Assembly (NCBI GenBank): GCA_016699935.1
Contig: CP064992.1
Span: 1,170,001 to 1,202,000, forward strand
Reading direction: 5' to 3'
DNA from: Candidatus Saccharimonadota bacterium
GTDB taxonomy: Bacteria; Patescibacteriota; Saccharimonadia; Saccharimonadales; UBA4665
DNA: 32,000 bases
Position numbers and translations under genes: made by a program
Notes under the pieces: generated by a model
The model's input: the letters and a program-made list of their open reading frames with translations, nothing else
Told to the model about the DNA's origin: nothing
Databases searched by the model: none
Part shown: piece by piece, positions 284 to 32,000 of the stretch
How the letters are laid out: each line of letters starts with the position of its first letter
Numbering within the stretch: position 1 is the first letter of the stretch

Positions 284-323
284 GATTTACGCTATGAGAG
301 TTAAGGGCTGTCAGATTAGAAAT

Positions 324-372
324 AAGAGTGGTGAGATAAGAGATAAGAATAGTGAGCGGAAAGTGAAAATGA
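324..372. repeat. Degenerate period-7 purine-rich array
   Basis: AAGAGTG GTGAGAT AAGAGAT AAGAATA GTGAGCG GAAAGTG AAAATGA, read directly from the plus strand. Confidence 0.6.
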
Positions 373-445: not shown

Positions 446-476
446 AGATTTTGCTTGTGCTACAACGACCATATTT

Positions 477-485
477 TGCTATACT
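477..485 (+). promoter_or_regulatory. Extended -10 (TGcTATACT) upstream of the PBP1A gene
   Basis: ttTGcTATACT at 477-485. GTG 489 lies only 3 nt downstream and ATG 522 lies 36 nt downstream, so the start codon is uncertain. Confidence 0.35.
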
Positions 486-3532: not shown

Positions 3533-4882
3533 TCACTTCTGGAGGAACTCATTCAGGGCAGATCGAACATCTGGCACGGTCACTAGAAACGATGATTGTT
3601 TTGCGTTGCCGCGCATACGAGGCCCAATTGCGCAGTCAAACCCAAGTTTTTGCCTCAGCGACACGCTTGTCTATGAATGGCACGTGGCGAATTTCACCCG
3701 AGAGGCCTATTTCACCGAAGACAACTGCATTTCGTTTGAGTTTTAGGCCTTTCGCGGCCGAGCCGATAGCCATACACACCGCCAAGTCCGCCGCTGGGTC
3801 CTGTAAACGCAGTCCGCCCACAATATTCACGTATATATCCTGGTCGGCAAGATTGAGTTTTGTTCTTTTCTCAAGCATTGCCACCAGCAGATTGATACGA
3901 TTCAGATCAATCCCACTTGCAGCGCGTTTCGGGTACCCGTAACTGGTTTTATTCACAAGCGCCTGGACTTCCACCAGTAGTGGACGAGTACCCTCAACGT
4001 TGCGAGCACGACTGACCCGTCGGTAATCTGCCGCTCTTCGAGAAGAGCCTGTGAGGGGTTGAGCACTGGCTTGAGCCCCTGCTCATCCATTTCCATAATT
4101 GCCGCTTCCGTCGTTGGACCAAACCGGTTCTTGGTGGCGCGTAGAACCTTGAACCCGCCGTACGCTTCGCCCTCCAAGGTCAATACTACATCGACAATGT
4201 GCTCGAGGAGCTTCGGTCCAGCGATAGCACCTTCTTTCGTGACGTGACCCACGATAAGCAGTGCGGTATTTGACTGTTTGGCTGCCTGGAGCAGTGTGTT
4301 TGTGCTGTTGGTGATCTGACTGACACTGCCAGGTGCGCTAGTTACTCCGGCTGCCTGCATCGTCTGAATAGAATCGACAACCACTAGCTGAAACTGCTTG
4401 CTCGCTATCGTCGCAGCAACGTCATCGGCCGAGTTCGAGGTTGCAAGCTGCAGTTTAGTTGCAGCCGCACTGAGACGCGTGGCGCGTATGCCAATCTGAT
4501 GCTCGGATTCTTCACCACTCACATACAGAACGGCAGCCTGCCCGGCAATAGCATTTGCAAGCTGGAGCAGCAACGTACTTTTGCCTATACCTGGCTGTCC
4601 GGCTATAAGCACGACACCGCCTGGAACCAGCCCACCACCGAGCACGATATCGACATCCAGTATGCCCGTCTGCAAACGGTGCTCTGGCTTGGCAGCCGAC
4701 GCCTTAACCGCCTGGGATGGCAATATTCTCCCTGATGGCTTCACCCCATTTGTATTTGACGCGACTAACTGCACTTCTTCAGCTATGCTATTCCATTCGC
4801 CGCACTGACTGCACCGCCCTGCCCAGGCCGAATACTGCGCACCGCAGCTTCCACACACATACTTCACGCTCTTTTTTGCCAT
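3533..4882 (-). CDS. radA: DNA repair protein RadA/Sms, with 2 apparent frameshifts
   Basis: Fragments 3953..4882 and 3636..3974. The first has a C4 zinc ribbon (CGSCGAQYSAWAGRCSQCGEWNS) and Walker A (GQPGIGKST). The second is the Lon-like domain. Junctions are near 3991-3997 (restores LEGTRPLLVEVQALV) and at the T5 run 3647-3651 (restores EAKLGFDCAIGPRMRGN...NEFLQK, stop 3533-3535). Confidence 0.9.
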
Positions 4883-4899
4883 AGGATCTCAGTATAGCA
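4883..4899 (-). promoter_or_regulatory. Extended -10 (TGcTATACT) 8 nt upstream of the radA ATG; leaderless-type
   Basis: The minus strand reads aatTGcTATACTgagatcctATG, with no SD. Confidence 0.45.
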
Positions 4900-4956
4900 A
4901 TTTTCAAGGTTCAATTCACAAGATTTTAGAGAATTTTCGATGAGCATGTTCCAAAC

Positions 4957-4991
4957 GTTCAACTGTCAACGTTCAAGTTATCAACAAACAA
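4957..4991. repeat. Period-7 array (GTTCAAC-type)
   Basis: The plus strand reads GTTCAAC TGTCAAC GTTCAAG TTATCAA CAAACAA. On the minus strand this gives phased TTGACA/TTGAAC -35-like hexamers. Confidence 0.6.
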
Positions 4992-5012
4992 TGTGCGGCC
5001 ATAGGCAACTGG

Positions 5013-5047
5013 AAGAATTATGAATCAAGAATTCAGAATTCAGAGTG
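5013..5047. repeat. Period-7 array (AAGAATT-type) abutting modular element copy A
   Basis: AAGAATT ATGAATC AAGAATT CAGAATT CAGAGTG on the plus strand. Confidence 0.6.
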
Positions 5048-5335
5048 CGGCAATAGGCCGCTCAAAATTGCCGCGTAGCGATGTAACTAGTGGTGGCCAT
5101 GCGGAAGCTCCTGGTCAGAATGTTGTTGGCTTCTACGACTTCTGGCAGGTGGCGTGACTTGTTTTACGAAGGCTAGTATTGCCGGTAGCAATAGTAGCTT
5201 GAGGAGTTGTCACGTCGGTTGTAGAAACGAACAATAGTTCTGCCAAGAGCTGGAGCTGCTGGCCGAGGTTTTTTGCTTCTTTTTGTCCGGCACAAAAAGA
5301 AGTCGCCCTGCCGGGCGAGACCGGCATGTTTTGTT
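5044..5335. repeat. Modular structured intergenic element, copy A (candidate ncRNA or BOX-like repeat)
   Basis: Shares ordered conserved blocks with 9169-9456 and 17477-17823. The blocks are: a GC hairpin gcggc-aatag-gccgc; agcgatgtaactagtggtggccatg...ctggtcag..tgttgt; gagttgtc.cgtc.gttgt..aaacgaacaa; ggagct.ctggccgaggttt; a long A/T stem cttctttttgt-ccgg-acaaaaagaag; and a cgccc-tgcc-gggcg hairpin. The strand is unresolved. Confidence 0.7.
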
Positions 5336-5437
5336 GATGGCAAAAGGCTTTGTTGGCCGCGGGACAAAACCCATATGAATGACGCTATTTTCGAAATTTA
5401 TTAGGCTAAATGGCAGAAGTCAAAACAGTGCATGTGG

Positions 5438-6421: not shown

Positions 6422-6436
6422 TGATTAAGTATACCA
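6422..6436 (-). promoter_or_regulatory. Extended -10 (TGgTATACT) 6 nt upstream of the ATG of the HExxH gene; leaderless-type
   Basis: The minus strand reads cttTGgTATACTtaatcaATG. Confidence 0.45.
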
Positions 6437-6489
6437 AGAAGCTAACCAGTTGAGGTAACGAACGGAGATCACCCATAGGAACCGACGAC

Positions 6490-8966
6490 TTATTCGCTAT
6501 GGGTAGCATAGGTCAGGGCATCATCACGCGAACCAACGTGGATGATATCGCCCTTAGTAAACTTATCGTCGAGGATATCAATAGCCAGCTGATCTTCTAT
6601 GGTGTCTTGGATGAGCCGGCGCAAGGGACGGACACCGTTTTTAGCATCATAGCCATGTTCAATCAAATACTGCTTGGCGGCAGTCGTAAGCTGAACACTG
6701 ACACCATGTTTTTGCAAGCGTTTGCGCAGCTCGTCAACCTGCAAGTCTATGATATGGTAAATATCCTTTTTGTGAGGCCGCGGAACACAACGACCTTATC
6801 GATACGGTTCAATAGCTCTGGGCGCAGCTCTTTTGAGCCGATCCATGACATTGTCCTTGTTTTGCTCATGCATGGCGTCGAGATCCTCAAAGTCAGTTCT
6901 ACGTCCAGCCTGGAAACCAAGTGCAGCTTCTTTTTGGAGCTTGTCGGCACCAATGTTGCTCGTCATGATGACAATGGTATTCGTGAAGTCTATGCGACGG
7001 CCTTTTGCGTCGGTCAGGTAGCCATCTTCGAGCATTTGTAAAAGCATGTTAAATACATCTGGATGCGCCTTTTCAATTTCGTCAAACAAGACAAGGCTGT
7101 AAGGCTGGCGGCGGATTTTGTCGGTGAGCTGGCCACCTTCGTCGTAGCCGACATAACCTGCCGGAGCACCAACAAGCCGCGATACATTGTGATGTTCGCC
7201 AAATTCACTCATATCTATCTTAACCAGCGCATTCTCAGAGCCAAAAAACTCACGAGCGAGCACGCGCGCCAGTTCAGTTTTGCCAACCCCAGTTGGACCA
7301 AGAAAAATGAACGAACCAATTGGCCGATTAGCGGCGCTAATACCACTACGATTCCGACGAATCGCCTTACTGACAACTGCGACAGCTTCCGTCTGGCCAA
7401 TCACATGCCTGGAGATGTTCTTTTCGAGTTGTAACAGGTACTTAGCTTCGCTTTTGATAACTTTTTCACAGGCACGCCAGTGATGCGGGAAACGACTTCA
7501 GCCACATCGTCACTACTCATGACGAGCACTGCACCAGTTTTTGTTGCCTTATACAGCTCGTCGAGCTTTTTTGGATTTGTGAGGCGCGAGTTTTACCTCG
7601 AGCGGCTCGTTCGTAATCTTCCTGGTCAACCGCTTCGTCTATACGAGCATTGACGAGCTTCAATTCTTTCTGCAACTTGCGAACCTCAGGACTTGTTTTG
7701 CCCCTTTCTACACGAAGCGCGGCTGCCGTCTCGTCGAGTAAATCAATTGCCTTATCTGGCATGAATCTATCTTGGATATAGCGCTTTGCGAAATTCACCG
7801 TATCATCAATGACTTCATCGCTAATGGTAACACCATGAAACTCCTCATAGTGTTTGCGGAGTCCCTTTAGAATGGCGATAGTTTCGGGCATAGTTGTTTC
7901 CGGAACCTGGATGGGCTGAAAGCGCCGTTCTAGGGCCGCATCTTTTTCAACATGCTTGGTGTATTCTGCTGTCGTCGTGGCACCAATAACCTGGATTTTG
8001 CCCCGGGCAAGCGCGGGTTTCAAGATATTACCGGCATCCATCGAACCTTCGGCTGCACCGGCACCAATAATAAGATGTAACTCATCTATGAAAACCACCG
8101 TCCGTTTGTCGCCTTCAAGTTCGGCCATGACTTTTTAAGCCGCTCTTCAAATTCGCCGCGATACTTCGTGCCTGCGACCATTGCAGCAAGATCAAGCATT
8201 ACAATGCGCTTATCGAGCAGACTATCTGGCACGTCCTCATTGATGATTCGCTGCGCGAGACCCTCAACAATAGCTGTCTTGCCAACACCAGGCTCGCCAA
8301 TAAGCACAGGATTATTCTTGGTTCGGCGGTTCAGAATGGTTACAACTCGTTTAATCTGTGCCTCACGTCCGACAACTGGGTCAAGTTTGCCGCCACGGGC
8401 CTGGGCAGTCAAGTCAGTACCAAACTGATCGAGCATGCTTTTACTACTGCGTTGAGCCTTGCGGGCTGTCCGGCGCGAACCGGGCTCAACTGTTTCACGG
8501 TCGGCGTCATCAAACTGGCGGCTCAAGAAATTTTCGAGTTCACGCACGATGCTGTCGGTATTGACATGCATATCGCGAAGTAAGACGCTGGCACGAGAGT
8601 TCTTCTGGCTCAGGATACTATACAAGATATGTTCGGTGCCACAGAAGTCCTGGCCGTAGTCTTGCGCAACATCATAGGCCATACGGAGAGTGAGTTTGGC
8701 TGTTTCGCTATAGCCTTTTGCGCCCATGTTGATAACGATGTTTTTGGCGTCAGCTTCAAGGCGACTTGGGCTTTACTGAGAGTGACGCCGGCATCTTCGA
8801 GGATTTTTCCACCCAGGCTACCATCTTGTGCCATCAGACCAAGAAGCAAATGTTCGGTACCAATGTACGCATCACCGAGCCCGCGAGCTATTGTCCCTGC
8901 GTGCGCGAGGCTTTGCCGAGCATTCTCGGTTAAATAGTTTGAAAATTCTTGGTAGTCTGGTTGCAT
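6490..8966 (-). CDS. clpC: ATP-dependent Clp protease ATP-binding subunit ClpC, broken into at least 6 fragments
   Basis: Fragments 8610..8990, 8086..8727, 7517..8128, 6796..7404, 6747..6953 and 6490..6744. Together they give Clp_N repeats, NBD1 (GEPGVGKT), a short UVR-like middle region (DQEDYERAA), NBD2 ([11 protein letters not shown]) and the C-terminal D2-small domain. One junction resolves at the T5 run 8741-8745. The likely start is ATG 8966..8964, preceded by aaGGAGcgaattat. Confidence 0.9.
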
Positions 8967-8996: not shown

Positions 8997-9031
8997 AGTC
9001 AAGAAACATGAGTCATGAGTCAAGAGTGAAA
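8997..9031. repeat. Period-7 array (AGTCAAG-type) in the clpC upstream region
   Basis: AGTCAAG AAACATG AGTCATG AGTCAAG AGTGAAA on the plus strand. The minus strand carries phased TTGAC motifs. Confidence 0.6.
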
Positions 9032-9055: not shown

Positions 9056-9113
9056 GTCTGGAATCCCGTCTTCGTGAGTAATGTACTTCACGAATACGAT
9101 ACTACCAGTCTAG

Positions 9114-9145
9114 CAAAATTAGCACTCCCACGTCAAGAGTGCTAA
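9114..9145 (-). terminator. Intrinsic terminator downstream of nusA and element copy B
   Basis: The minus-strand RNA forms uuagcacuc-uugacgugg-gagugcuaa (9-bp stem) followed by UUUUG. Confidence 0.55.
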
Positions 9146-9152
9146 ATTGGAA

Positions 9153-9172
9153 TTAGATGTTAGATGTTAGTG
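9153..9172. repeat. Period-7 array (TTAGATG-type) abutting element copy B
   Basis: TTAGATG TTAGATG TTAGTG on the plus strand. Confidence 0.55.
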
Positions 9173-9456
9173 CGGCCGCAGGCCGCCAGTAATCATCGCG
9201 CCAGCGATGTAACTAATGATGGCCATGCGTAACCTCATGGCTCAGGTGTTGTCGGCTTTGACAACTTCCGACAGGTGGCGCGACTTGTCCGAGAGAGGCC
9301 TGGATTGCCTGTGGCAATCCAGGCTGAACGAGTTGTCGCGTCAGTTGTCAAAACGAACAACTATCTGACCAAGAGGTGGAGCTACTGGCCGAGGTTTCTC
9401 GCTTCCTCTTTTCCGGTAAAAAAGGAAGTCGCCCTGCTGGGGCGAAACTGGCATTT
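9169..9456. repeat. Modular structured intergenic element, copy B
   Basis: Same block order as copy A. It has the hairpins gcggcc-gca-ggccgc and catcgc-gcca-gcgatg, a variable hairpin gcctggattgcc-tgt-ggcaatccaggc, and the A/T stem cttcctctttt-ccggt-aaaaaaggaag. It ends 8 nt from the nusA stop codon. Confidence 0.7.
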
Positions 9457-9461
9457 ACCCT

Positions 9462-10615
9462 TTATTCCCCGTGTTCTTCAATAGCGTCGAGTAGTGAGCT
9501 TTCGAGTTGCTCTTTCTTCTTTAGGCGCGGCTGCTTAGGCAATTCTTTTACTTGTGGCTCGCCTTCAACGTCTGGCGCATTTTCAGCCTCAATATCGAGT
9601 TCATAGCCAACAAGTTTGCTCGCAAGCCGCACGTTCTGACCACCACGACCGATGGCAATACTCAGTTGATCTTCCGGCACAAACACTTTGGCGCGCTTGG
9701 CAGATTCGTCTATGACGACGCGATTGACCTTGGTTGGGCTCAGTGCATTCATAATGTACTGGGCAGCCTCATCAGCGTAGACTATGATATCTATCTTTTC
9801 TTGTTCACCCACTTCACCGACCACCGCATTGACGCGCGTACCGTGTCCGCCCACAAAGGTTCCGACGGGATCGACACCAGGCACCGTACTAGCGACGGCG
9901 ATTTTGCTGCGGACACCAGCCTCACGAGCAATGTTCTTAATCTCGACTGCGCCAGCATCCATTTCTGGCACCTCAGCGCGGAAAAGCCACTCAATGAACT
10001 GAGTATTGCCTCGTGAAACTACCAGCTGCGGGCCGCGAGGGCCGCGCTCGACGTCTTTCAGGAACACCTTGAGCCGTTGGCTTGGGTAGTAGCGCTCACC
10101 CTGGATCTGTTCGCTTTTGGCATAATTCCTTGCGCTTTACCCAACTCCAATCGGACAATCATACCCTCGACACGAGTCACCATAGCATTAATTACGGTAC
10201 CGATTTTGTCTTCGTACTCAGCCAGGACTATCTCTCGTTCAGCTTCACGCAGCCGCTGCAATATAACCTGTTTGGCGGTTTGGGCAGCCACGCGGCCAAA
10301 GGTGGTTACCTTTTCATGCAGCTCGACAAAGTCACCTATGGCAGCCTCTTTTTTGAGCTTCTTGGCGTCTACCAGACTTATTTCGAAATCTTCGTCACCT
10401 ACTTTCTCCACAACTTCTTTGCTGACATACGCATCTACCTCACCGCTGTGCAAGTTCATACTCACGCGTACTTCTTGCTCGCGTTCACCATAATCACGGC
10501 GATAAGCTGCGGCAAGAGCTTGCTCCACCACTTCTTTCACTGTATCTTCAGGCAGATTCTTTTCCTCAGCTATTGCCTGTATGGCTACTGCTAGTTGTTT
10601 AAAATCCATATCCAT
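9462..10615 (-). CDS. nusA: Transcription termination/antitermination factor NusA, with 1 apparent frameshift
   Basis: Fragments 10058..10639 and 9462..10067 cover the N-terminal, S1 and KH domains. The junction is at the T4 run 10115-10118 and restores GIMPKSEQIQGERYYPSQRLKVFLKDV. The likely start is ATG 10615 (MDMDFKQL), preceded by GGAGcgaagcgactc. Confidence 0.9.
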
Positions 10616-10629
10616 GAGTCGCTTCGCTC

Positions 10630-10664
10630 CAATTCTCAATTAGCAATTTTCAATGACCAATTGT
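10630..10664. repeat. Period-7 array (CAATnnn x5) in the nusA promoter region
   Basis: CAATTCT CAATTAG CAATTTT CAATGAC CAATTGT on the plus strand, with CAAT in exact phase in 5 consecutive units. Confidence 0.7.
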
Positions 10665-10688: not shown

Positions 10689-10713
10689 AAAAAAGCCGAC
10701 CTGCCGGCCGACC
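10689..10713 (-). terminator. Intrinsic terminator after the 233-aa orphan gene
   Basis: The minus-strand RNA forms gucggcc-ggca-ggucggc (7 bp including two G-U pairs) followed by UUUUUU. The pairing works only on the minus strand. Confidence 0.6.
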
Positions 10714-10750
10714 ATTACACATTTTATTGTAGCAATTTGTACAAAGAGAG

Positions 10751-11446
10751 TCAAATGAGAAAACTGATTCCTCCAGTCGGCTTATATGTAAGTACCGGTA
10801 GAAATCTAGTTTGGTTTTCAAACTCTGCCGCAGAAACTTCATGTGCGGGTGTTTCCCTGTTCACATCCCGAATATAGCGTTTCCACAATGCTACATTACT
10901 CATCATAAAAACCAAGGCATACGATAGTGGGTTGTCTAGAAATGCTGGCCACATATCTTGATGTAACGCGGAACGTATCATTTTCTCATCAGGGTTCAGT
11001 TGATATTTTGGAACCCCAGGTTGGCGTCTACTTATCATAACTTCCTGAATAGTATGCTCATTTTTGTCGCCAAGGGCCGTATGCACAAATCTACCAAGAG
11101 CAAGTCGGATAGTTCTGTCTACTATACGTACCGCCTCTTGGATTCCCATAGTTGAATCTGGCAGCCCAAGCGCTGCGATATTTCCTGCATACACTGCAAT
11201 ATGTCTCTCGCGAGGATCGTACGTTGCACCCGTAGTAATGCCTCGAAGATTTTGTTGGTTTTCATGCAGCTCTCTAATTACACCATCAGTCATCCCGCGT
11301 ATGCTCACCGTGAGTTCGTCTATTGCATCAGCGGGAACATTAGCTTCTCTAAGTAATCTCCATGCTATGGGGCCCGCAATGTGACAATCAGGCAAATTGA
11401 GCATACCCCAAGTATCTGTTCTAAAATGTGGGCCCCCCGGACGCAT
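10751..11446 (-). CDS. Hypothetical protein (orphan, no family recognised)
   Basis: Intact ORF 10751..11452. I prefer ATG 11446 over the upstream TTG. No motif is recognisable. By eye the segment is more AT-rich than the flanking nusA and pepN. Confidence 0.6.
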   Translation of the reverse strand: MRPGGPHFRTDTWGMLNLPDCHIAGPIAWRLLREANVPADAIDELTVSIRGMTDGVIRELHENQQNLRGITTGATYDPRERHIAVYAGNIAALGLPDSTMGIQEAVRIVDRTIRLALGRFVHTALGDKNEHTIQEVMISRRQPGVPKYQLNPDEKMIRSALHQDMWPAFLDNPLSYALVFMMSNVALWKRYIRDVNRETPAHEVSAAEFENQTRFLPVLTYKPTGGISFLI

Positions 11447-11555: not shown

Positions 11556-14172
<2,617 letters not shown>

Positions 14173-17398: not shown

Positions 17399-17429
17399 GC
17401 AGCTAGTGTGTTTTTATTCCCAGAGGCGT

Positions 17430-17478
17430 GAGTCAAGAGACAAGATAGAGATAAGAGTTAAGAGATTTGAGATAAGAG
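17430..17478. repeat. Period-7 purine-rich array abutting element copy C
   Basis: GAGTCAA GAGACAA GATAGAG ATAAGAG TTAAGAG ATTTGAG ATAAGAG on the plus strand. Confidence 0.65.
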
Positions 17479-17823
17479 TGCGGCCTTGAGGCCGCTAAAT
17501 GATCATCGCGTAGCGATGTAACTAGTGGTGGCCATGTGTAACCTCCTGGCTCAGATGTTGTTAGGCTCTACAACTTCCAACAGGCGACACGAGTTGTTTG
17601 ATGCTAGTCAAGCCCTTGTGGCTTGACCAAGTAGCGATGTGTTATTCAAACACATCGCGTTCGGAAAGCTAGTATTGCTTCTGGCAATACCTTTTTGACG
17701 AGTTCTCGTGTCGGTTGTAGAACTGAAAAAAGCTGACCAAGTGGTGGAGCCTTTAGTCGAGGTTTTTGCTTCTTTTTGTCCGGTACAAAAAGAAGTCGGC
17801 TGGCAGTCCGAGAACTTCCGAGG
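17477..17823. repeat. Modular structured intergenic element, copy C (longest; two extra internal hairpins)
   Basis: Same conserved blocks as copies A and B. It has the hairpins gcggcc-ttga-ggccgc and catcgc-gta-gcgatg. The extra hairpins are gtcaagcc-cttgt-ggcttgac and gcgatgtgtt-attc-aaacacatcgc. The shared variable hairpin is gtattgc-ttctg-gcaatac. The A/T stem cttctttttgt-ccggt-acaaaaagaag is identical to copy A. Confidence 0.7.
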
Positions 17824-17883
17824 GAATAAGGTTGGGCGAGATTGTCAGGTGTAGTGAGTACGCAGACGTTGGAGCAAGCGCAT

Positions 17884-17945
17884 GGATTCCCGCATGCGCG
17901 GGAATGACAAGCAAGTGAAGATTCTTCACTTCGTTCAGAATGACA
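17884..17945 (+). repeat. Two GAATGACA-type hairpin repeats
   Basis: ggattcccgc-atgc-gcgggaatgaca (17884-17909) and gattct-tcacttcgttc-agaatgaca (17920-17945). Confidence 0.65.
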
Positions 17946-21436: not shown

Positions 21437-24400
21437 TTATTGCAACTTCACGTTTTCTGCACCAACAAGCTCGGTTAAGTCTGAGATGACTGAAGGTGCC
21501 TGCACTCGAGCAGGAAGCTTAACGGCTTGTTTGGCGGTATCTGGTCCGAGCACAAGAACTACCTCGTGCTCACCGATACTACCATCGATAATCTGTTTCA
21601 GCTGGCTGAGCAGCGCGGTATCGTCACTCCGTTTTAAGCGTATATACAACCGTGGAGCTTTGGTCGCTTCGACAGCATCTGGAACAGAAGAATTTTTTAC
21701 CGTCTTCGTTCTTGCTGAAGACTTCGCCGGTTTTGGTACCCGCGCTTTTCGACCAGTTGCCTGGTAGGCCGCTGCTTGTTCATGGGTAACCTCACGAGCA
21801 TCGTCAACGAGCACCTTAACTTCGTCGCCACTGTTGCCGTCACGGCCTTTTGTGCTGAGTTTCCCGCGTATGAGCACCACACGATCGCGCTCCCACAACC
21901 CGACAGTCTGCTGGAAGGCAGAAGGAAATAGCACAGCTTCAATATCGCCGTATTCATCCTCGATTTTAACAAACGCCATTTTTTGGCCATTTTTGGTCGT
22001 AATTTCACGAGTTTCGGTGATGCTTCCACCGATAACAACCGCTCGACCGTCATGCTCGGGTTTCAAAATATTGAGCGGTGTGGTCTGCTCGGCCAGTAAC
22101 GCACTGAATGCTGCAAGCGGCTGTTGACTCAGGTACAAACCAAGTAGTTCGCGCTCCCACAGCAAAAGTTCACGTGCATTATGCTTGTACTCAGGTGGTG
22201 CTAGCTGGAGGGTAGGTTTTGCCGATCTGGCATCATCGTCAAGGCTCCCAAACAGGTCAGTCTGTCCACTGGCCTTTTCCTTTTGGAGGCGCTGGCCAAA
22301 TGCAAGAATGATGTCGAGGTTATGGAGCAACGTCGATCGGTCACCAAATGCATCAAATGCTCCAGACCGCGCTAAGCTTTCAAGAGCCTTCCGGTTGACA
22401 GTACGCAAGTTGACCGCACCCACAAAATCTTCGATGCTCGTGAATACACCCAATTCTCTCGCGTGCACGATTTCCTCGACAGCACCCTGGCCGACGTTTT
22501 TTATGGCGTTCATGCCAAATCGGATGGCATTTCTTTCCTTGACCACTGCAAATTCGCCGAACGACTCATTTACGTCGGGGGGTAGGACTTGCAGGCCCAT
22601 TTTTTTACACTCAGTAATCTCAATACTTAATCGGTCGCTATCATCATAGTCACTCGTCATAAGGGCGGCCATAAATGCTGCTGGATAGTGAGCTTTGAGG
22701 TATGCCGTCTGATACGCGATGAGTCCGTAGCAGGCAGCGTGCGCTTTGTTGAAACAGTAGGCGGCAAAATCTTCGAGTTGCTTCCAAAAATCTTCCATCA
22801 GGCCACGCTCGGCCCCGACCGTCTTGACCGCACCTTCAATGAATTCGGCCTTCATTTTGGCCATCATCTGCGGATTTTTCTTGCCGATAGCCTTACGTAG
22901 CGTGTCGGCCTGGCCGCCCGTAAAACCACACATATCCTTGCTGATCTGCATGACCTGTTCTTGCATGACAATGACGCCGTAAGTACTTTCAAGAGCAGGC
23001 TTCATCGCTGGATGCATATAGGTTATTTGCTTTTTGCCATGCTTTCGGGCAATGAAATCTTCAATCCACTGCATTGGACCCGGACGATACAGAGCCACCA
23101 TAGAGATGATGTCTTCAAAAACTGAGGGTTGGAGTTCCTTTAAGTAGCGCTTCATCCCAGCTGACTCGAGCTGGAACACACCGGTCGTGTCGCCGCTACT
23201 CAGCAGTTTGTATGTTTTTGTATCGTCAAGCGGAATGGTGTTGATGTCTATGTCATCACCGTAGACTTTTTTATGATTCGAAGCGCGTTCTTGATGATGG
23301 TCAGGTTTGATAGCCCAAGAAAATCCATTTTGAGTAGTCCAAGTTCCTCGATCGGGCCCATCGGGTATTGAGTCGCGACGACTCCCTTTTGTGCCATTTC
23401 AAGTGGTGCAAATTTGACTATGTCATCTGGCGCTATGACAACCCCGCGGCATGTACGCCGTGACTCCGCACCGTTCCCTCGAGGATTATGGCGTAGTCTA
23501 TGACAGTCTTGCTCGTTTCGTTCGTTTCGTACTCGCCGCAGATCGACGTCGTCGACTATAGAGGTCGCGAGCGGGATATGGCGCCCTGGACAGGCTGGGG
23601 ATCATCTTAGCCAGTCGGTCAGCATCTGCGTAAGGCACCTGTAGCACACGGGCGACATCGCGGACAGCATTTCGTGCAAACATCCGGCCAAAGGTGACGA
23701 TGTTTGCCACGCGGTCTTTGCCGTATTTTTCCACGCAGTACTGGATAACTTCATCGCGGCGCGTATCTTGAATGTCGATGTCAACATCGGGCATCGATAT
23801 ACGGTCAGGGTTCAAAAACCGCTCAAACAACAGGTCATATGCCAATGGGTCAAGCTCAGTGATCTTGAGTGCATAGGAGATAATGGAGCCAGCGGCACTG
23901 CCTCGACCCGGCCCAAATACAATGCCGTTATTTTTACCCCAGTTAATAAAATCTTGAATGATAAGAAAGTAGCCGTCAAAGCCCATTTTTTCGATTATGC
24001 CCAGTTCATATTCGGCGCGTGTAATAACTGCCTCGGGGATGTGTTTGCGCGCTTCTGCGACCGACATGGTCGATGCTTCATCTTCTGTCACGCCACCGTA
24101 GCGCCACGCCATCCCCCGGAACGCGAGTGTATCTAGGTAGGTCTTTTCCGTTTCGCCATTCGGCACAGGAAACATGGGGATGAGGATTTTGCCTAGGTCA
24201 ATATTGACCCCGCAACGCTCAGCGACGACTTTGGTGTTTAGGATAACCTCGGGGTAGTCAGTGCCCCAGCGAGATATGAGCTCGTCCGGTGGCGTTACAT
24301 GCAGCTCGTAATCCTTTAGGCTCATCCGTTTTTCGTCGCTTAAAAAAGCACCAGTACCAACACACAGCAAGATCTCGTGGGCGTCTTGGTCGGCATGTTT

Positions 24401-25102
24401 TAGGTAGTGCGCATCACAGGTGAGAACGACGGATATATTGAGTTCTTTTGCCAGCTTAAACACGCCGTCGTTGACTCGCTTTTGTTCCGCGCTGTGCGAC
24501 GGCGCATCAGGATGGCCGTGGTCTTGAACCTCGAGATAGTAGCGGTCGTTAAATGTCTTTTGTACCAGCTAGCCACTTCTTTGCCTTAGCGTAATCATCG
24601 TTTTTCAGCGCATCGCCAATCTCCCCGCCCATACAGGCACTTCATGGCAATGAGCCCTCGCCGTACTGCTCGAGAAGCTCATGGTCTATACGCGGAAAGT
24701 AGTAAAACCCGTCCAGATTAGCGATAGTGCTCAAGCGCATCAGGTTCTGGTAGCCCGTCTGGTTCATGGCAAGCAAGATGAGGTGGTAGCGGTTTTTATC
24801 TTCTGGGGATCCTTGTCCGTATGACGTCTTGAGGCGACGTATGTCTCTATGCCGATGATAGGCTTCACCTCTTGCCCGAGACACTCTTTATAAAACTCTA
24901 TGGTGCCGCTGAGGGTGCCATGATAGGTCATGCCTACGGCAGTCATACCTTGTTCTTTGACAAAGCTAACGAGCTCCGGGATCTTCGTCAAACCATCCAG
25001 CAAACTATACTGCGTATGATTATGCAGGTGCACATAGTCTGTTACCGACACAGAAGCAGGCTTTGATACAGCTTTAGCTTTCTTCTCAGACATATACCTC
25101 AC
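21437..25102 (-). CDS. dnaE: DNA polymerase III alpha subunit DnaE, broken into at least 6 fragments
   Basis: Fragments are 24764..25102 (PHP: VHLHNHTQYSLLDG), 24642..24884, 23498..24463 (GPGRGSAAGSIISYALKITELDP...PDVDIDI) and 21437..23179 (fingers, OB fold and C-terminal region). The gaps 23180-23497 and 24464-24641 carry the expected sequence in shifted frames. The total span of ~1220 codons is normal for DnaE. The start is GTG 25102 or ATG 25093. Confidence 0.92.
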
Positions 25103-28422: not shown

Positions 28423-28504
28423 TTGAGAATGAGGTATGACGAATGATGAATGACGTATTTGGAATGTTATACACCACTCTCCATTCACCATTCATCATAC
28501 TTGC
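28423..28504. repeat. Period-7 arrays in inverted orientation (imperfect palindrome) in the spacer upstream of gatB
   Basis: The left arm is TTGAGAA TGAGGTA TGACGAA TGATGAA TGACGTA TTTGGAA. The right arm is CTCTCCA TTCACCA TTCATCA TACTTGC. A 9-bp perfect core pairs tgatgaatg (28444-28452) with cattcatca (28489-28497). Confidence 0.5.
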
Positions 28505-28509
28505 CTGTC

Positions 28510-28929
28510 TCATAGTGCTCCCAAGTCCTTCAATGCCGATTTTATCCCAAGCAATGCGTCTTTCACGTCGCGCTCACGAAGTTTAATGTCGCTTTCGTGA
28601 ACAAGCTTATTACGGAGCTTGTGACCAAACCAGACTTCATCGTTATATTTTATTTCGCGCTGCGCCGCAACAAGCCGTTCGCCCATGGTTTTTCCCTTAA
28701 AACGGCGGTCTTTCAGCGCCTTATCAAGGAGCTTGTCGGCGTCGATGATAGCGAGTGGCCACGTGGCAGTATCCTTCAAGAGCTTTTGTAGTTCTTTCCA
28801 CTTCTGTTCGTAATACGCCATGTTCATTTTCCGACCGCGACGGGAAATAACCCCCGCGACGATAACCAACAGAGCCATGAGCAGACCGGCGCCCACCGCG
28901 AGAACAGTTGAATTCATCATATCGTTCAC
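28510..28929 (-). CDS. Hypothetical single-pass membrane protein embedded in the gat operon
   Basis: Intact 139 aa with an N-terminal TM segment (VLAVGAGLLMALLVIVAGVI) and a basic helical domain. The GTG start overlaps the gatA TGA (GTGA). The SD GAAGGAG lies 7 nt upstream. Confidence 0.65.
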   Translation of the reverse strand: MNDMMNSTVLAVGAGLLMALLVIVAGVISRRGRKMNMAYYEQKWKELQKLLKDTATWPLAIIDADKLLDKALKDRRFKGKTMGERLVAAQREIKYNDEVWFGHKLRNKLVHESDIKLRERDVKDALLGIKSALKDLGAL

Positions 28930-30358
28930 TTCAGTACTCCTTCGGTGGTGGCGGCAAATGCCAACAGCTCACGGTCACGTCGTTGCGGGGCGATGATTTG
29001 CAAACCTATAGGCATACCCGTTTGCGCACTCAGAGCTGCTGGAATACTTATGGCCGGAACGCCCACCAGCGCCGGAGCAACGGTCATCATATCGACCAGG
29101 TACATTTTGAGGGGTCGTCGGCATTTTCACCTATCTTAAAAGCGGCATTTGGCGCTACTGGACCAATGAGGAAATCGTACTGCTCTAGCGCGTCGTTGAA
29201 TTCGTTGATCAGCTTGGTTCGGACAGTCTGTGCCTGTTTGTAGTAGGCGTCGTAGTAGCCACTACTGAGAACGTAGGTGCCTATCATAATTCGCCGCTTG
29301 GCCTCGCGGCCAAAGCCTTTAGCGCGAGACTGGGTATAGCTCTCGAACAAATCTGTACCGCTCTGGTCGCTAAATTGATAGCGCTGGCCGTCGTGCCGCG
29401 CAAGATTACTGCTTACTTCAGCAGGGATAAGTATGTAGTAGACAGCCAAGGAGAGTGGCAGGCTCGGTATACTGACCTCTTCCACGACCACGCTCCGGCA
29501 GCTGTGAGCTTATGGACAGCCTGCTCTACCGATGTTCGGACGTCGTCGTCCAGGCCTTCACCCATCCATTCTTTGATGATTCCGACTTTGGTAGCTGGAA
29601 GGTGGAAGGTAGTAGGTGGAAGGTAGTAGCCTTCTGGATCGCGGTCTATAGTGGTGCTGTCTAGTTCATCTTTACCGGCATATACGTCAAACACGTACGC
29701 TGTGTCTTCTACAGTCATTGCCAATGGTCCAATGGTGTCTGTACTGCTCGCCATGGCGACAACACCACTACGCGAAGTCAGCCCGTAGGTCGGACGTAGT
29801 CCTACGCATCCAACGTAACTGGCGGGTTGGCGAATAGACCCACCGGTGTCTGTTCCGATGGCAAAAGGCGCCATCTCAAGCACCACGGCCGCCGCAGGAC
29901 CACCAGATGATCCGCCTGGCACGCGGGTTTTATCATGTGGATTTTTGTGACAAAAAGTCAGAGTTTTCGGTGCTAGCACCATGACCAAAGGCATCTTGGT
30001 TGGCTTTGGCCACACAAATAGCGCCCTCAGCCTCAAGCCGATTTATAACGGTTGACTGATACGGTGGCACAAAACCTTTCAGGATGTTACTTGCCGCCGT
30101 CGCTTCCACGCCCATGACAAGCAAATTGTCTTTGGCTATGAACGGCACGCCAGCTAACCGCCCTGCGTTTACCCCATTTGCCACTTTCTCATCTATAGCT
30201 TTCGCCCGGGACCGCGCCGAATCGGCCAGTGTCGATATGATAGCCTGGTAGTCTTTGTGCTGTTCGATAGCGGCCAGGCTTTGTTCAACCAGATCAACCG
30301 CCTTGACTCGCCCAGACTGAACATCATCTGCCAGTTGGGCAATCGGCTTCCACTTCAT
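28926..30358 (-). CDS. gatA: Glu-tRNA(Gln) amidotransferase subunit A, with at least 3 apparent frameshifts
   Basis: Fragments 29933..30358, 29413..30036 and 29087..29491. A C-terminal piece that I translated reads [59 protein letters not shown], with a stop at 28926-28928. The amidase signature is [11 protein letters not shown]...[12 protein letters not shown]. Confidence 0.9.
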
Positions 30359-30382: not shown

Positions 30383-30471
30383 AGAGATAAGAGATGGGAG
30401 ATAAGAGATAAGAAAGTAACACCATCGTACGAAACTTGACTCTTAACTCTTAACTCATATCTCTTATCTCT
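30383..30471. repeat. ~90-nt near-perfect palindrome built from heptad arrays, filling the gatC-gatA spacer
   Basis: The outer 13-bp perfect stem pairs agagataagagat (30383-30395) with atctcttatctct (30459-30471). By hand, the inner arms 30396-30413 and 30441-30458 pair at about 14 of 18 positions (one G-T). Confidence 0.7.
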
Positions 30472-30473
30472 CA

Positions 30474-30767
30474 TTACCCGATCATCCTCTTCACCCTCAG
30501 CATGTTTTTTTCCACCTTTGGGACGATCTGCAGCAGCTTTTCAGCTGTGTAGCCGTAGTCGATTACTTCATCTTTGCGCATGACGTTGGTAAGCCCAGTG
30601 ACTTGATTAGTTGGCTCCAGGCCGCTTACATCGACAGAGGAGAGCTGCTCAACATAGCCCAAAATAGCACTCAGCTCAGTCGCAAACGAGTCAACTTCAT
30701 CATCCGACAAAGAAATCCGTGCAAGCACGGCCAACTTTAAGACATCTTCACGAGAGAGCTTCGTCAT
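30474..30767 (-). CDS. gatC: Asp/Glu-tRNA amidotransferase subunit C
   Basis: Intact 97 aa: LSREDVLKLAVLARISLSDDEVDSFATELSAILGYVEQL...TNVMRKDEV. Confidence 0.9.
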   Translation of the reverse strand: MTKLSREDVLKLAVLARISLSDDEVDSFATELSAILGYVEQLSSVDVSGLEPTNQVTGLTNVMRKDEVIDYGYTAEKLLQIVPKVEKNMLRVKRMIG

Positions 30768-31159: not shown

Positions 31160-31447
31160 ATGAATAACTTAGATAAAACAACGATAAACGTGAAGCTCAG
31201 CAAGCAACTTAAACAAGACGCTCAGGCGCTGGCAGACGAATTGGGCATTCCGCTCAGCACAGTAATGGTCGCGAATCTTAATGAATTTGTTCGCAGTCGT
31301 TCGCTCGTACTCTCGGCTCTACCGCGTCTCAACCCTGAGATTGAGTCAGAACTCCAGGAAGCCATGACCGACTATCAATCTGGCCAGGAAATCTCCCCAG
31401 TCCTCGGAAGTAAAAAAGCTATTGCTGACCATTTTCTCGCCCTATGA
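31160..31447 (+). CDS. relB: Type II antitoxin, RelB/DinJ family
   Basis: Intact 95 aa. TINVKLSKQLKQDAQALADELGIPLSTVMVANLNEFV fits the RHH DinJ/RelB pattern. There is a 4-nt ATGA overlap with the toxin gene. Confidence 0.8.
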   Translation: MNNLDKTTINVKLSKQLKQDAQALADELGIPLSTVMVANLNEFVRSRSLVLSALPRLNPEIESELQEAMTDYQSGQEISPVLGSKKAIADHFLAL

Positions 31448-31704
31448 ATATTGTTGTTCACCGTCGATTTGATAAAATGTTCGCAAAATTGCCCGCAGCC
31501 ACGCGTAACAAAGCAATTATGAGATTACAACTATTTGCCCAAGATCCACTATCTCCCAGACTCCGTAATCACGCACTTCACACACCTTACAAGGGGTGCT
31601 ATAGCATAGACATTACAGGTGATATCAGAGCCATCTACTACCTAGTAGATGACGCAACAGCGTTGTTTACTCATATAGGTACTCACAGCCAGTTATATCG
31701 TTAG
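31444..31704 (+). CDS. relE: Type II toxin, RelE/YafQ-family mRNA interferase
   Basis: Intact 86 aa. RFDKMFAKLP...LFAQDPLSPRLRNHALHTPYKGCYSIDITGDIRAIYYLVDD..LFTHIGTHSQLY fits the RelE/YafQ pattern. Confidence 0.8.
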   Translation: MNIVVHRRFDKMFAKLPAATRNKAIMRLQLFAQDPLSPRLRNHALHTPYKGCYSIDITGDIRAIYYLVDDATALFTHIGTHSQLYR

Positions 31705-31725
31705 ATTTCTTCATGCACCGCTAAG

Positions 31726-32000
31726 CTACATCTTGGCTTTGATGTCGGCTATGAGGTCGCGGAGTTCGGCGGCTGTTTCGAACTGGAGGTTGGCGGCGGC
31801 TAGTTCCATTTGACCTGTCAAGTCTTTGACTAGGCTCTTGTATTCGTCTTTTGGAATCTTTTTCAGATTTAGTTTGGCACGCTTGGCTTCCTCTGGTAGA
31901 TCGGTATTCAAACGAGCCTCGACTGCCCTCGTTATACCGGTAGCCGTTATGCCATGTTCAGTGTTGTAGATTTCCTGTATGCTGCGGCGACGATTCGTTT
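31726..32000 (-). CDS. uvrB: Excinuclease ABC subunit B, C-terminal part (continues beyond the window end)
   Basis: My minus-strand translation is NRRRSIQEIYNTEHGITATGITRAVEARLNTDLPEEAKRAKLNLKKIPKDEYKSLVKDLTGQMELAAANLQFETAAELRDLIADIKAKM. It contains the UvrB YN.EHGIT motif and the C-terminal UVR domain. Confidence 0.85.
   Translation of the reverse strand, partial: TNRRRSIQEIYNTEHGITATGITRAVEARLNTDLPEEAKRAKLNLKKIPKDEYKSLVKDLTGQMELAAANLQFETAAELRDLIADIKAKM

Follow-up and report, generated by a model that had tools for sequence, protein, structure and literature searches.

The window analyzed here is a 32,000-nucleotide stretch of the genome of a Candidatus Saccharimonadota bacterium (contig CP064992.1 of assembly GCA_016699935.1, positions 1,170,001 to 1,202,000). 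Its open reading frames (ORFs) encode PBP1A, RadA, ClpC, NusA, aminopeptidase N, RNase HII, L19, a PilB-like ATPase, DnaE, GalU, and GatC/A/B, and the closest loci in public genomes all belong to Saccharibacteria/Saccharimonadales, with a top GatB match of 88%. Between these genes lie degenerate tandem arrays of 7-nucleotide units (heptads), which are the subject of this work, and among them an array flagged at 10630-10664 in the 5' leader of nusA. Every array listed in an initial annotation of this DNA was found at its coordinates; that annotation overlooked the inverted, hairpin-forming pairing within 28427-28498 and within 30383-30474. The arrays, as located by Tandem Repeats Finder (TRF), by a scan for high-scoring segments at a lag of 7 nucleotides (lag-7 scan), or by folding, are as follows:

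297-372, minus strand: AAGAGAT-type degenerate heptad array (CTCTTAT on the minus strand), reported by TRF at 313-356 with period 21 and at 333-348 with period 7; in a divergent spacer, directly upstream of the promoter-like site (304 to 276, minus) of a minus-strand gene starting near 269
418-445, no strand assigned: GAATTCY-type heptads, weak, not significant alone and reported by neither TRF nor the lag-7 scan
4954-4991, minus strand: GTTGAAC-type array (array B), TRF at 4954-4976; 55 to 90 nt upstream of the extended -10 motif of radA (4891-4900)
5013-5047, minus strand: AATTCTG-type array (array C), TRF and lag-7 scan, score 15; immediately after the terminal GCGGC..GCCGC hairpin of copy 1 of a 290-nt element described below
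8997-9030, minus strand: CTTGACT/CATGACT array (array D) in the clpC 5' leader, TRF and lag-7 scan, score 14; about 20 nt upstream of the clpC Shine-Dalgarno sequence, with the clpC promoter candidate at 9136 to 9107
9153-9170, minus strand: CATCTAA x2.6, TRF and lag-7 scan; adjoining the clpC -35 region, immediately following the last hairpin of 290-nt element copy 2
10630-10664, minus strand: the flagged array (array A), five NNNATTG units in the nusA 5' leader, TRF and lag-7 scan
17423-17478, minus strand: CTCTTAT-type array (array F), TRF, score 17; between the rplS promoter and the last hairpin of 290-nt element copy 3
28427-28498, minus strand: inverted pair of a GATGAAT-type and an ATTCATC-type array, TRF, lag-7 scan, and folding
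30383-30474, minus strand: inverted pair of AGAGATA-type arrays, TRF and lag-7 scan, arms 87% complementary

Three contexts can be distinguished: upstream of promoters (297-372, 4954-5047, 9153-9170, 17423-17478), in leaders adjacent to the Shine-Dalgarno sequence (8997-9030, 10630-10664), and inside an operon (28427-28498, 30383-30474).

The period is specific and well above chance. TRF returned 28 rows for the window, of which 12 have period 7, 4 have period 14, and 1 has period 21; arrays at 28472, 29596, 30383, and 30435 were absent from the earlier list. Lag-7 autocorrelation of the non-coding segments was 0.288 compared with 0.256 in 500 dinucleotide shuffles (z = +5.2) and lag 21 reached z = +6.2, and in the coding DNA of the window lag-7 autocorrelation was below average. 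Local high-scoring segments numbered 12 at period 7 and only 1 each at periods 4, 5, 8, 10, 11, 13, and 15. Locally shuffled versions of the window held a mean of 0.72 period-7 segments (maximum of 4 in 100 shuffles), and 10 of the 12 real segments fall in spacers. The periodicity noted in the initial annotation is real and robust in statistical terms, period 7 being the sole non-codon period in excess in the window. The estimate of at least ten spacers, or almost every promoter-proximal one, was too high, since a clear array is present in only 7 of 20 spacers (7 of the 13 that are at least 100 bp long), and the listed arrays at 418-445 and 4957-4991 are each weak when taken alone.

The same bias appears in some lineages of relatives. 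Our comparison set comprised 80 gatB-centered loci from different Saccharibacteria species (1.4 Mb) and 80 L19-centered metagenome loci, 160 in total; a scan for CAAT units took in 180 loci, and one for a nusA-leader hairpin covered 2.17 Mb. The gatB-centered loci contain 84 arrays of period 7, compared with 17 to 48 for periods 5, 8, 10, 11, and 13; these are concentrated in about 15 genomes, most genomes having none, and the L19-centered loci gave the same pattern. Across the 160 loci, ORF-like stretches account for 93.5% of bases but only 38% of period-7 arrays. The remaining 6.5% of the DNA holds 70 of the 112 arrays, compared with 3 to 16 intergenic arrays at each of the other five periods. 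Heptad arrays are a sizeable share of the scarce non-coding DNA in this Saccharibacteria lineage, and some in the relatives are long and perfect (for example, GAAAGTA x7.7 and AGTAGAA x8.3). We distinguished 102 canonical units, A+T-rich, among 124 arrays. Not every site has a unit of its own: the AGAGATA type recurs at 4-5 sites with a common irregular unit; for example, 318-349 and 30383-30414 are 88% identical and have this irregular unit in common. An inverted partner lies within 150 nt of 49 of the 124 arrays (about 40%), compared with 4 to 7 in reversed or complemented controls.

The two inverted pairs of the window fold into strong hairpins. The pair at 28427-28498, in the spacer between a gene termed X (28510-28929) and gatB, folds as a 20-bp stem-loop with a minimum free energy (MFE) of -31.4 (z = -3.8 versus shuffles), and the pair at 30383-30474, in the gatC-gatA spacer, folds as an interrupted stem-loop of about 30 bp with an MFE of -41.1 (z = -4.3 versus shuffles). 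The solitary arrays of the window have no significant structure of their own by folding. Across related loci, the stem-loops of inverted pairs span 20 to 30 bp, and the hairpin cassette begins right after a stop codon and ends just 5' of the ribosome-binding site of the next gene. The X-gatB and gatC-gatA spacers carry heptad hairpins in many species, usually with differing units; other species lack the spacer altogether or have a hairpin without periodicity. In many pairs the two arms mismatch periodically, once in each heptad, a sign of arm-wise homogenization, and in one central loop hairpin a double change between strains is compensatory.

Exact-protein look-ups with the GatC, L19, and X proteins of the window returned no other contigs and hence no strain-level relatives of its genome. 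A sister population of 20 contigs (L161-L180), 92 to 98% identical to one another in gatA, X, and gatB and with protein X identical or nearly so (P0004/P0005), was substituted for a strain-level comparison. Its X-gatB spacer carries three unrelated hairpin alleles (GCATGRA/CATACTY, AGAGTCA/CATGTCT, and AAGTAGT-type), and its gatC-gatA spacer either has one of three alleles or is wholly absent, with gatC overlapping gatA. Because unrelated alleles occur between strains with such similar flanking genes, these hypervariable cassettes are natural strain markers. In two members of the population, L171 and L175, the X genes match at 99.5% identity, yet the hairpin allele and the 5' end of gatB differ, which suggests recombination breakpoints at or near the two spacers.

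Single families of hairpins also recur at several sites. One family occupies both spacers of the same genome, with 80% identity over 98 nt including the loop in L161 and 73% in L162, and the same hairpin family occurs in non-orthologous spacers of other species at 76 to 81% identity; unrelated families align at about 59%. The unit family of array D is that of the "type II" hairpin arms in related genomes.

The flagged array sits in the nusA leader, between a conserved hairpin (10694-10713, minus strand; a stem-loop and then a T-run, downstream of a promoter candidate at 10754 to 10726) and the Shine-Dalgarno sequence. A stem-loop of the form YCGGCC-loop-GGTCGR-TTTT is nearly invariant upstream of nusA in the window and in all 26 related loci. 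It occurs exactly once per locus in the 2.17 Mb scanned (for example, at 12932 in L083 and 6801 in L098), directly downstream of a promoter-like site, and keeps a G-U wobble in hosts whose NusA proteins are only 55 to 89% identical. This hairpin looks like a conserved attenuator and could serve NusA autoregulation, for which NusA-dependent termination in other bacteria is the comparison. The gap from the hairpin to the Shine-Dalgarno sequence is just 15 to 45 nt in most genomes, and 24 of the 26 related leaders have no period-7 array; those of L111 and L117 give a borderline period-7 signal only (score 9; in L117, a Shine-Dalgarno-like duplication) and have no ATTG units. The syntenic locus L083, with about 75% nucleotide identity in its genes, has 8-9 ATTG units compared with 5 in the window, together with an inserted small hairpin repeat, and among the 180 loci scanned, four in-phase CAAT units occur only in the window and L083. 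By these comparisons, the array at 10630-10664 is a lineage-specific expansion inside a conserved leader, inherited with a change in unit number, and lies outside the conserved regulatory design of that leader. Comparison of orthologous spacers, as had been proposed, gave a divided result: unit number does differ between species, at nusA and also upstream of rplS, where the orthologous L081 spacer has related CTCTTAW/CATGACT units in other numbers and types, but it does not differ within one allele represented by nine contigs.

Several other repeats lie in the window:

5041-5342, 9167-9469, and 17475-17834, minus orientation: repeated non-coding element of about 290 nt (copies 1 to 3), upstream of radA, clpC, and rplS; a further copy at 717-1001 of L081
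15123-15250 and 17957-18082, with a partial copy at 17883-17910: repeat of about 125 nt resembling a miniature inverted-repeat transposable element (MITE), 81% identity
29589-29629: 14-nt perfect tandem duplication (AGGTGGAAGGTAGT x2.1, period 7/14) inside gatA, in a variable loop
31002-31088 and 31713-31799: direct repeat of 87 nt (89% identity) on either side of 31160-31704, which holds a YafQ-type toxin gene preceded by a small ORF

The 290-nt element has a mean identity of 74% and folds with an MFE of -130.6 (z = -7.4) into two small 5' hairpins, a long imperfect hairpin of about 230 nt, and two small 3' hairpins, the last of which is GCGGCC-loop-GGCCGC and is followed directly by heptads. 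Compensatory double changes occur at 19 base pairs among just three copies. The element had no Rfam match even at an E value of ≤10, and copies were absent from 159 other related loci and from viral contigs. It could represent a novel structured RNA or else a palindrome of the MITE type. All four copies fold better on the plus strand of the window, which leaves the strand of transcription uncertain. We rejected the idea that arrays generally flank GCGGCC-type hairpins (11%, compared with 13% at random placement); the link between arrays and GC hairpins in the window is due to the 290-nt element. The 125-nt repeat has terminal inverted repeats (ACCTGAGTCTCAAAAC/GTTTTGAGACTCAGGT) and an internal hairpin (TGGATTCCCGC-loop-GCGGGAATGACA); its target duplications are ambiguous, at 4 to 8 bp, and a related hairpin is present in L083 at about 12985-13010. 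The reading frame is the same on either side of the gatA duplication, and the region is in frame overall. The 87-nt repeat is the duplicated 3' end of a minus-strand gene that runs off the window (C-terminus ...ANLQFETAAELRDLIADIKAKM*) and looks UvrB-like, and the YafQ arrangement looks like a cassette inserted at a gene 3' end. The small ORF upstream of the toxin gene has no Pfam hit and an antitoxin-like appearance, and by our own reading its sequence looks ribbon-helix-helix (RHH)-like. Searches of the window for tRNAs and against Rfam returned no match.

Throughout the window, frameshifts split many essential genes (PBP1A, RadA, ClpC, NusA, PepN, RNase HII, DnaE, GalU, and GatA) into overlapping ORFs (examples are at 1489-1492, 3953-3974, 8086-8128, 8610-8727, 10058-10067, 12928-12961, 29413-29491, 29933-30036, and, for DnaE, 21437-25102). 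Most of them do not fall at long homopolymers. Their most likely source is error in a long-read assembly, not genuine pseudogene formation.

With moderate confidence, we interpret the heptad arrays as heptanucleotide simple-sequence repeats that have grown by slippage and are copied and replaced as REP-like cassettes. They would take two forms: solitary direct arrays, placed upstream of promoters or within 5' leaders (the flagged nusA array included), and arrays joined to their reverse complement in stem-loop cassettes of 85 to 110 nt inside operons. Units would be gained and lost by slipped-strand replication in steps of 7 or 14 nt and homogenized arm by arm, and whole cassettes would pass as copies from spacer to spacer and be exchanged or lost among strains through recombination, gene conversion, or some unspecified mobilization. 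We infer slippage, the means of copying, and any RNA-level role from the patterns described above. Slipped-strand replication is suggested by the tandem structure, the perfect arrays in relatives, the 14-nt higher-order units, the unit-number differences between orthologues, and the arm-wise homogenization. As one of the origins that the initial annotation offered, slippage fits the tandem structure, the unit-number differences, and the arm-wise mismatches but is insufficient alone, as the hairpins behave as dispersed, replaceable cassettes. Function, if any, would most likely reside in the stem-loops, in mRNA processing or stability or in pausing, as for REP elements; their placement makes a role in mRNA processing or stability plausible. 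The solitary arrays are probably tolerated by-products.

Several observations weigh against this interpretation. Nine strain-level contigs with the type II allele are identical and show no unit-number variation, so slippage is not fast in short arrays. The sense strand folds better than the antisense strand in 8 of 12 hairpins, with 23 versus 18 G-U pairs, which does not demonstrate RNA-level selection, and some hairpin families have one C-A mismatch per heptad on the sense strand. Mismatches concentrate at particular heptad positions (z = 3.4), and about 13 units in two genomes all keep the ATTG core unchanged; both patterns may reflect selection on a phased motif instead of neutral decay. 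The commonest unit, AAGAGAT, makes up 8 arrays in 4 sources (the window, L004, L081, and L031). The choice of period 7 is also left unexplained.

The arrays had initially been read as phased TTGAC/TTGAA -35-like motifs upstream of genes, and we find it very improbable that they are a promoter architecture in which such hexamers, or UP-like elements, set promoter strength. TTGAC is present in arrays B and D and at the end of F, and several arrays lie 40 to 110 nt upstream of -10 candidates (B, C, and F at 55 to 110 nt), but no in-array TTGAC is placed as the -35 of any good -10, and no TTGACA-like hexamer within an array falls 16 to 18 nt upstream of one. The best promoter candidates instead combine the extended -10-like motif TTGCTAYAMT with a -35 at 17 to 18 nt, separate from the arrays. 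This motif is found at 476-485 (plus strand) and at 4891-4900, 9107-9116, and 10726-10735 (minus strand), with a related site at 6428-6437 (minus strand), upstream of PBP1A, radA, a 327-amino-acid gene, clpC, and nusA. The bare pattern is at chance level (8 matches, 7.4 expected), and its exact or near-exact copies are all at gene 5' ends. Arrays A and D lie downstream of their promoter candidates, in the 5' leaders; neither hairpin spacer inside the gatC-gatA-X-gatB operon contains a promoter-like site; and orthologous promoters of relatives have no arrays. The heptad arrays are not phased -35 promoter elements, a caution that periodic motifs close to genes need not be promoter architecture. 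Equally improbable is an origin in intrinsic DNA curvature, chance, or faulty assembly. The high lag-21 autocorrelation could be taken for curvature, 21 bp being two helical turns, but 7 bp corresponds to about 240 degrees of a 10.5-bp helix, and identical bends would cancel every three units, which makes the curvature proposed in the initial annotation unlikely on geometry. Chance is excluded by the shuffles. The many frameshifts might cast doubt on the assembly, but the arrays are not artifacts of it, because dozens of independent short-read assemblies carry equivalent arrays at orthologous positions. Rho binding through regular YC dimers was considered and rejected, the published spacing of YC plus 9 to 13 nt (PMC6144790) giving no match to 7.

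Two explanations by dedicated proteins are somewhat less improbable, and we consider each of them unlikely. In one, the heptads are phased sites for a lineage-specific nucleic-acid-binding protein, either with an omega/ParB-like RHH dimer on each heptad or with a leader RNA-binding protein near the ribosome-binding site. Arrays typically of at least 4 contiguous heptads, direct and inverted, resemble the omega/ParB sites of pSM19035 (PMC9499535); two of them lie just 5' of a Shine-Dalgarno sequence, as TAACTGA repeats do in Beggiatoaceae (PMC4679880). The position-specific conservation within heptads and the ATTG core in phase in both the window and L083 would suit such a protein as well. However, the diversity of units across arrays leaves no common recognition sequence, near-identical strains can exchange alleles built of unrelated units, arrays lie anywhere from -110 to +90 with respect to promoter candidates, and most relatives are array-free at the same promoters and leaders, all of which weakens the phased-binding option. 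The window also holds no candidate gene for such a protein, its only RHH-like ORF being the one without a Pfam hit upstream of the YafQ toxin gene. In the other, non-autonomous mobile elements moved by a dedicated enzyme, such as a hairpin-recognizing REP-associated tyrosine transposase, would account for the hairpin cassettes and, as half-elements, for the solitary arrays, and the heptad structure would be a property of the moving machinery. This doubtful proposal draws on the presence/absence and allele replacement between 92-98% identical strains, on one family (loop included) in different spacers within and between genomes, on the irregular unit common to two window sites, and on insertions that are always intergenic and directly after stop codons, in a genome that has other small repeats such as the MITE with terminal inverted repeats and the 290-nt element. 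Against it, we found no clean conserved termini, target-site duplications, or common flanks for the cassettes and no transposase gene in the window; divergence continues into the ends of the neighboring genes, a pattern expected of homologous recombination between lineages; arrays are not enriched beside GC hairpins in general; and unit-wise homogenization and unit-number changes require slippage anyway. A transposon leaving 7-bp duplication footprints was also rejected, the MITE duplications being of ambiguous length and the inverted pairs left unexplained. Still more speculatively, the palindromic heptad cassettes might represent a novel class of small elements, mobile or self-propagating, in bacteria of the candidate phyla radiation, made and moved by a lineage-specific machine with a 7-nt ruler (a hairpin-recognizing transposase or recombinase or a heptad-register binding protein). 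If true, such a machine would also account for the long-noted dominance of 7-nt repeats in prokaryotes.

Our preferred reading, of slippage-grown repeats turned over as cassettes, places the arrays in one poorly understood class with the heptamer repeats of cyanobacteria, Xanthomonas, Beggiatoa, and Geobacter. The claim that no described repeat class has this property was wrong, since heptanucleotide repeats have already been described (PMC4679880, PMC4692102, PMC2700814). As summarized in PMC4679880 and PMC4692102, intergenic heptanucleotide repeats are over-represented in scattered bacterial lineages, with slippage suggested as their origin (Mrazek 2007). The Saccharibacteria arrays share with these long simple sequence repeats (LSSRs), including the short tandemly repeated repetitive (STRR) sequences of Calothrix and Nostoc as presented in the same two papers, head-to-tail tandem units of 7 nt, over-representation above chance and above other periods, an excess confined to non-coding DNA, a sporadic distribution among lineages, and polymerase slippage as the proposed origin. 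They differ in being short (3 to 8 units) and degenerate, with about 100 units rather than a few of high copy number, and in their host, a reduced-genome member of the candidate phyla radiation. One or a few high-copy units per genome, as for STRR1-3, GGGAATC, or TAACTGA, are a trait of particular families and not of the whole class. A literature search found no paper joining Saccharibacteria, tandem repeats, and intergenic DNA. The intergenic heptamers GGGAATC of Xanthomonas and GGGGAYT of Nostoc (Rehm et al. 2015, PMC4692102) resemble the hairpin pairs, as some form convergent inverted pairs able to fold into stem-loops, and the GGGAATC repeats lie between the same genes in two species with varying length and sequence (PMC4692102). 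However, those repeats are G-rich, quadruplex-forming, and made of about one unit per genus, whereas the units here are A+T-rich and diverse, without G-tracts.

The leader arrays A and D have counterparts in the TAACTGA direct repeats of marine Beggiatoaceae, cyanobacteria, and Bacteroidetes, which cluster just upstream of start codons (MacGregor 2015, PMC4679880), and in the MTYCTGA/GGACCGG heptanucleotide elements of Geobacter, with four and five units (PMC2700814). These are 2 to 6 tandem heptamers, many of which precede a start codon or ribosome-binding site by a few nucleotides, and the window unit ATTCTGA (array C) fits the Geobacter MTYCTGA consensus. In those systems a single genome-wide heptamer suggests one binding factor, whereas the arrays here have no heptamer in common. 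That a protein can read DNA in a 7-bp register is shown by the RHH protein omega/ParB of pSM19035, which needs at least 4 contiguous heptads, direct or inverted (PMC9499535). Its operators and centromeres, like the arrays, are contiguous 7-bp repeats, usually at least 4, direct and inverted, in promoter regions. Its sites have one consensus heptad and lie beside the omega/delta genes themselves, whereas the arrays have no common consensus, and the window contains no cognate gene and no adjacent RHH/ParA genes.

REP/BIME, Correia, and ERIC elements are small imperfect palindromes that lie between co-oriented genes after stop codons, are dispersed and variable among strains, and are thought to act as mRNA stem-loops. 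The heptad hairpins match them in placement and strain variability, being dispersed families of intergenic imperfect palindromes that vary between strains, but here the arms are tandem heptads, and we identified no conserved flanking tetranucleotide or terminal repeats and, within the window, no associated transposase. What is new is the Saccharibacteria host, the great diversity of units, and the heptad-armed hairpin cassettes that turn over as discrete alleles. That rapidly turned-over heptad repeats and heptad-armed hairpins make up much of the spacer DNA is notable in genomes as small and tightly packed as those of Saccharibacteria. The gatCAB spacers and the nusA leader together offer a compact comparative system for asking why 7-nt units dominate among the simple repeats of bacteria and whether such repeats act as mRNA stem-loops.

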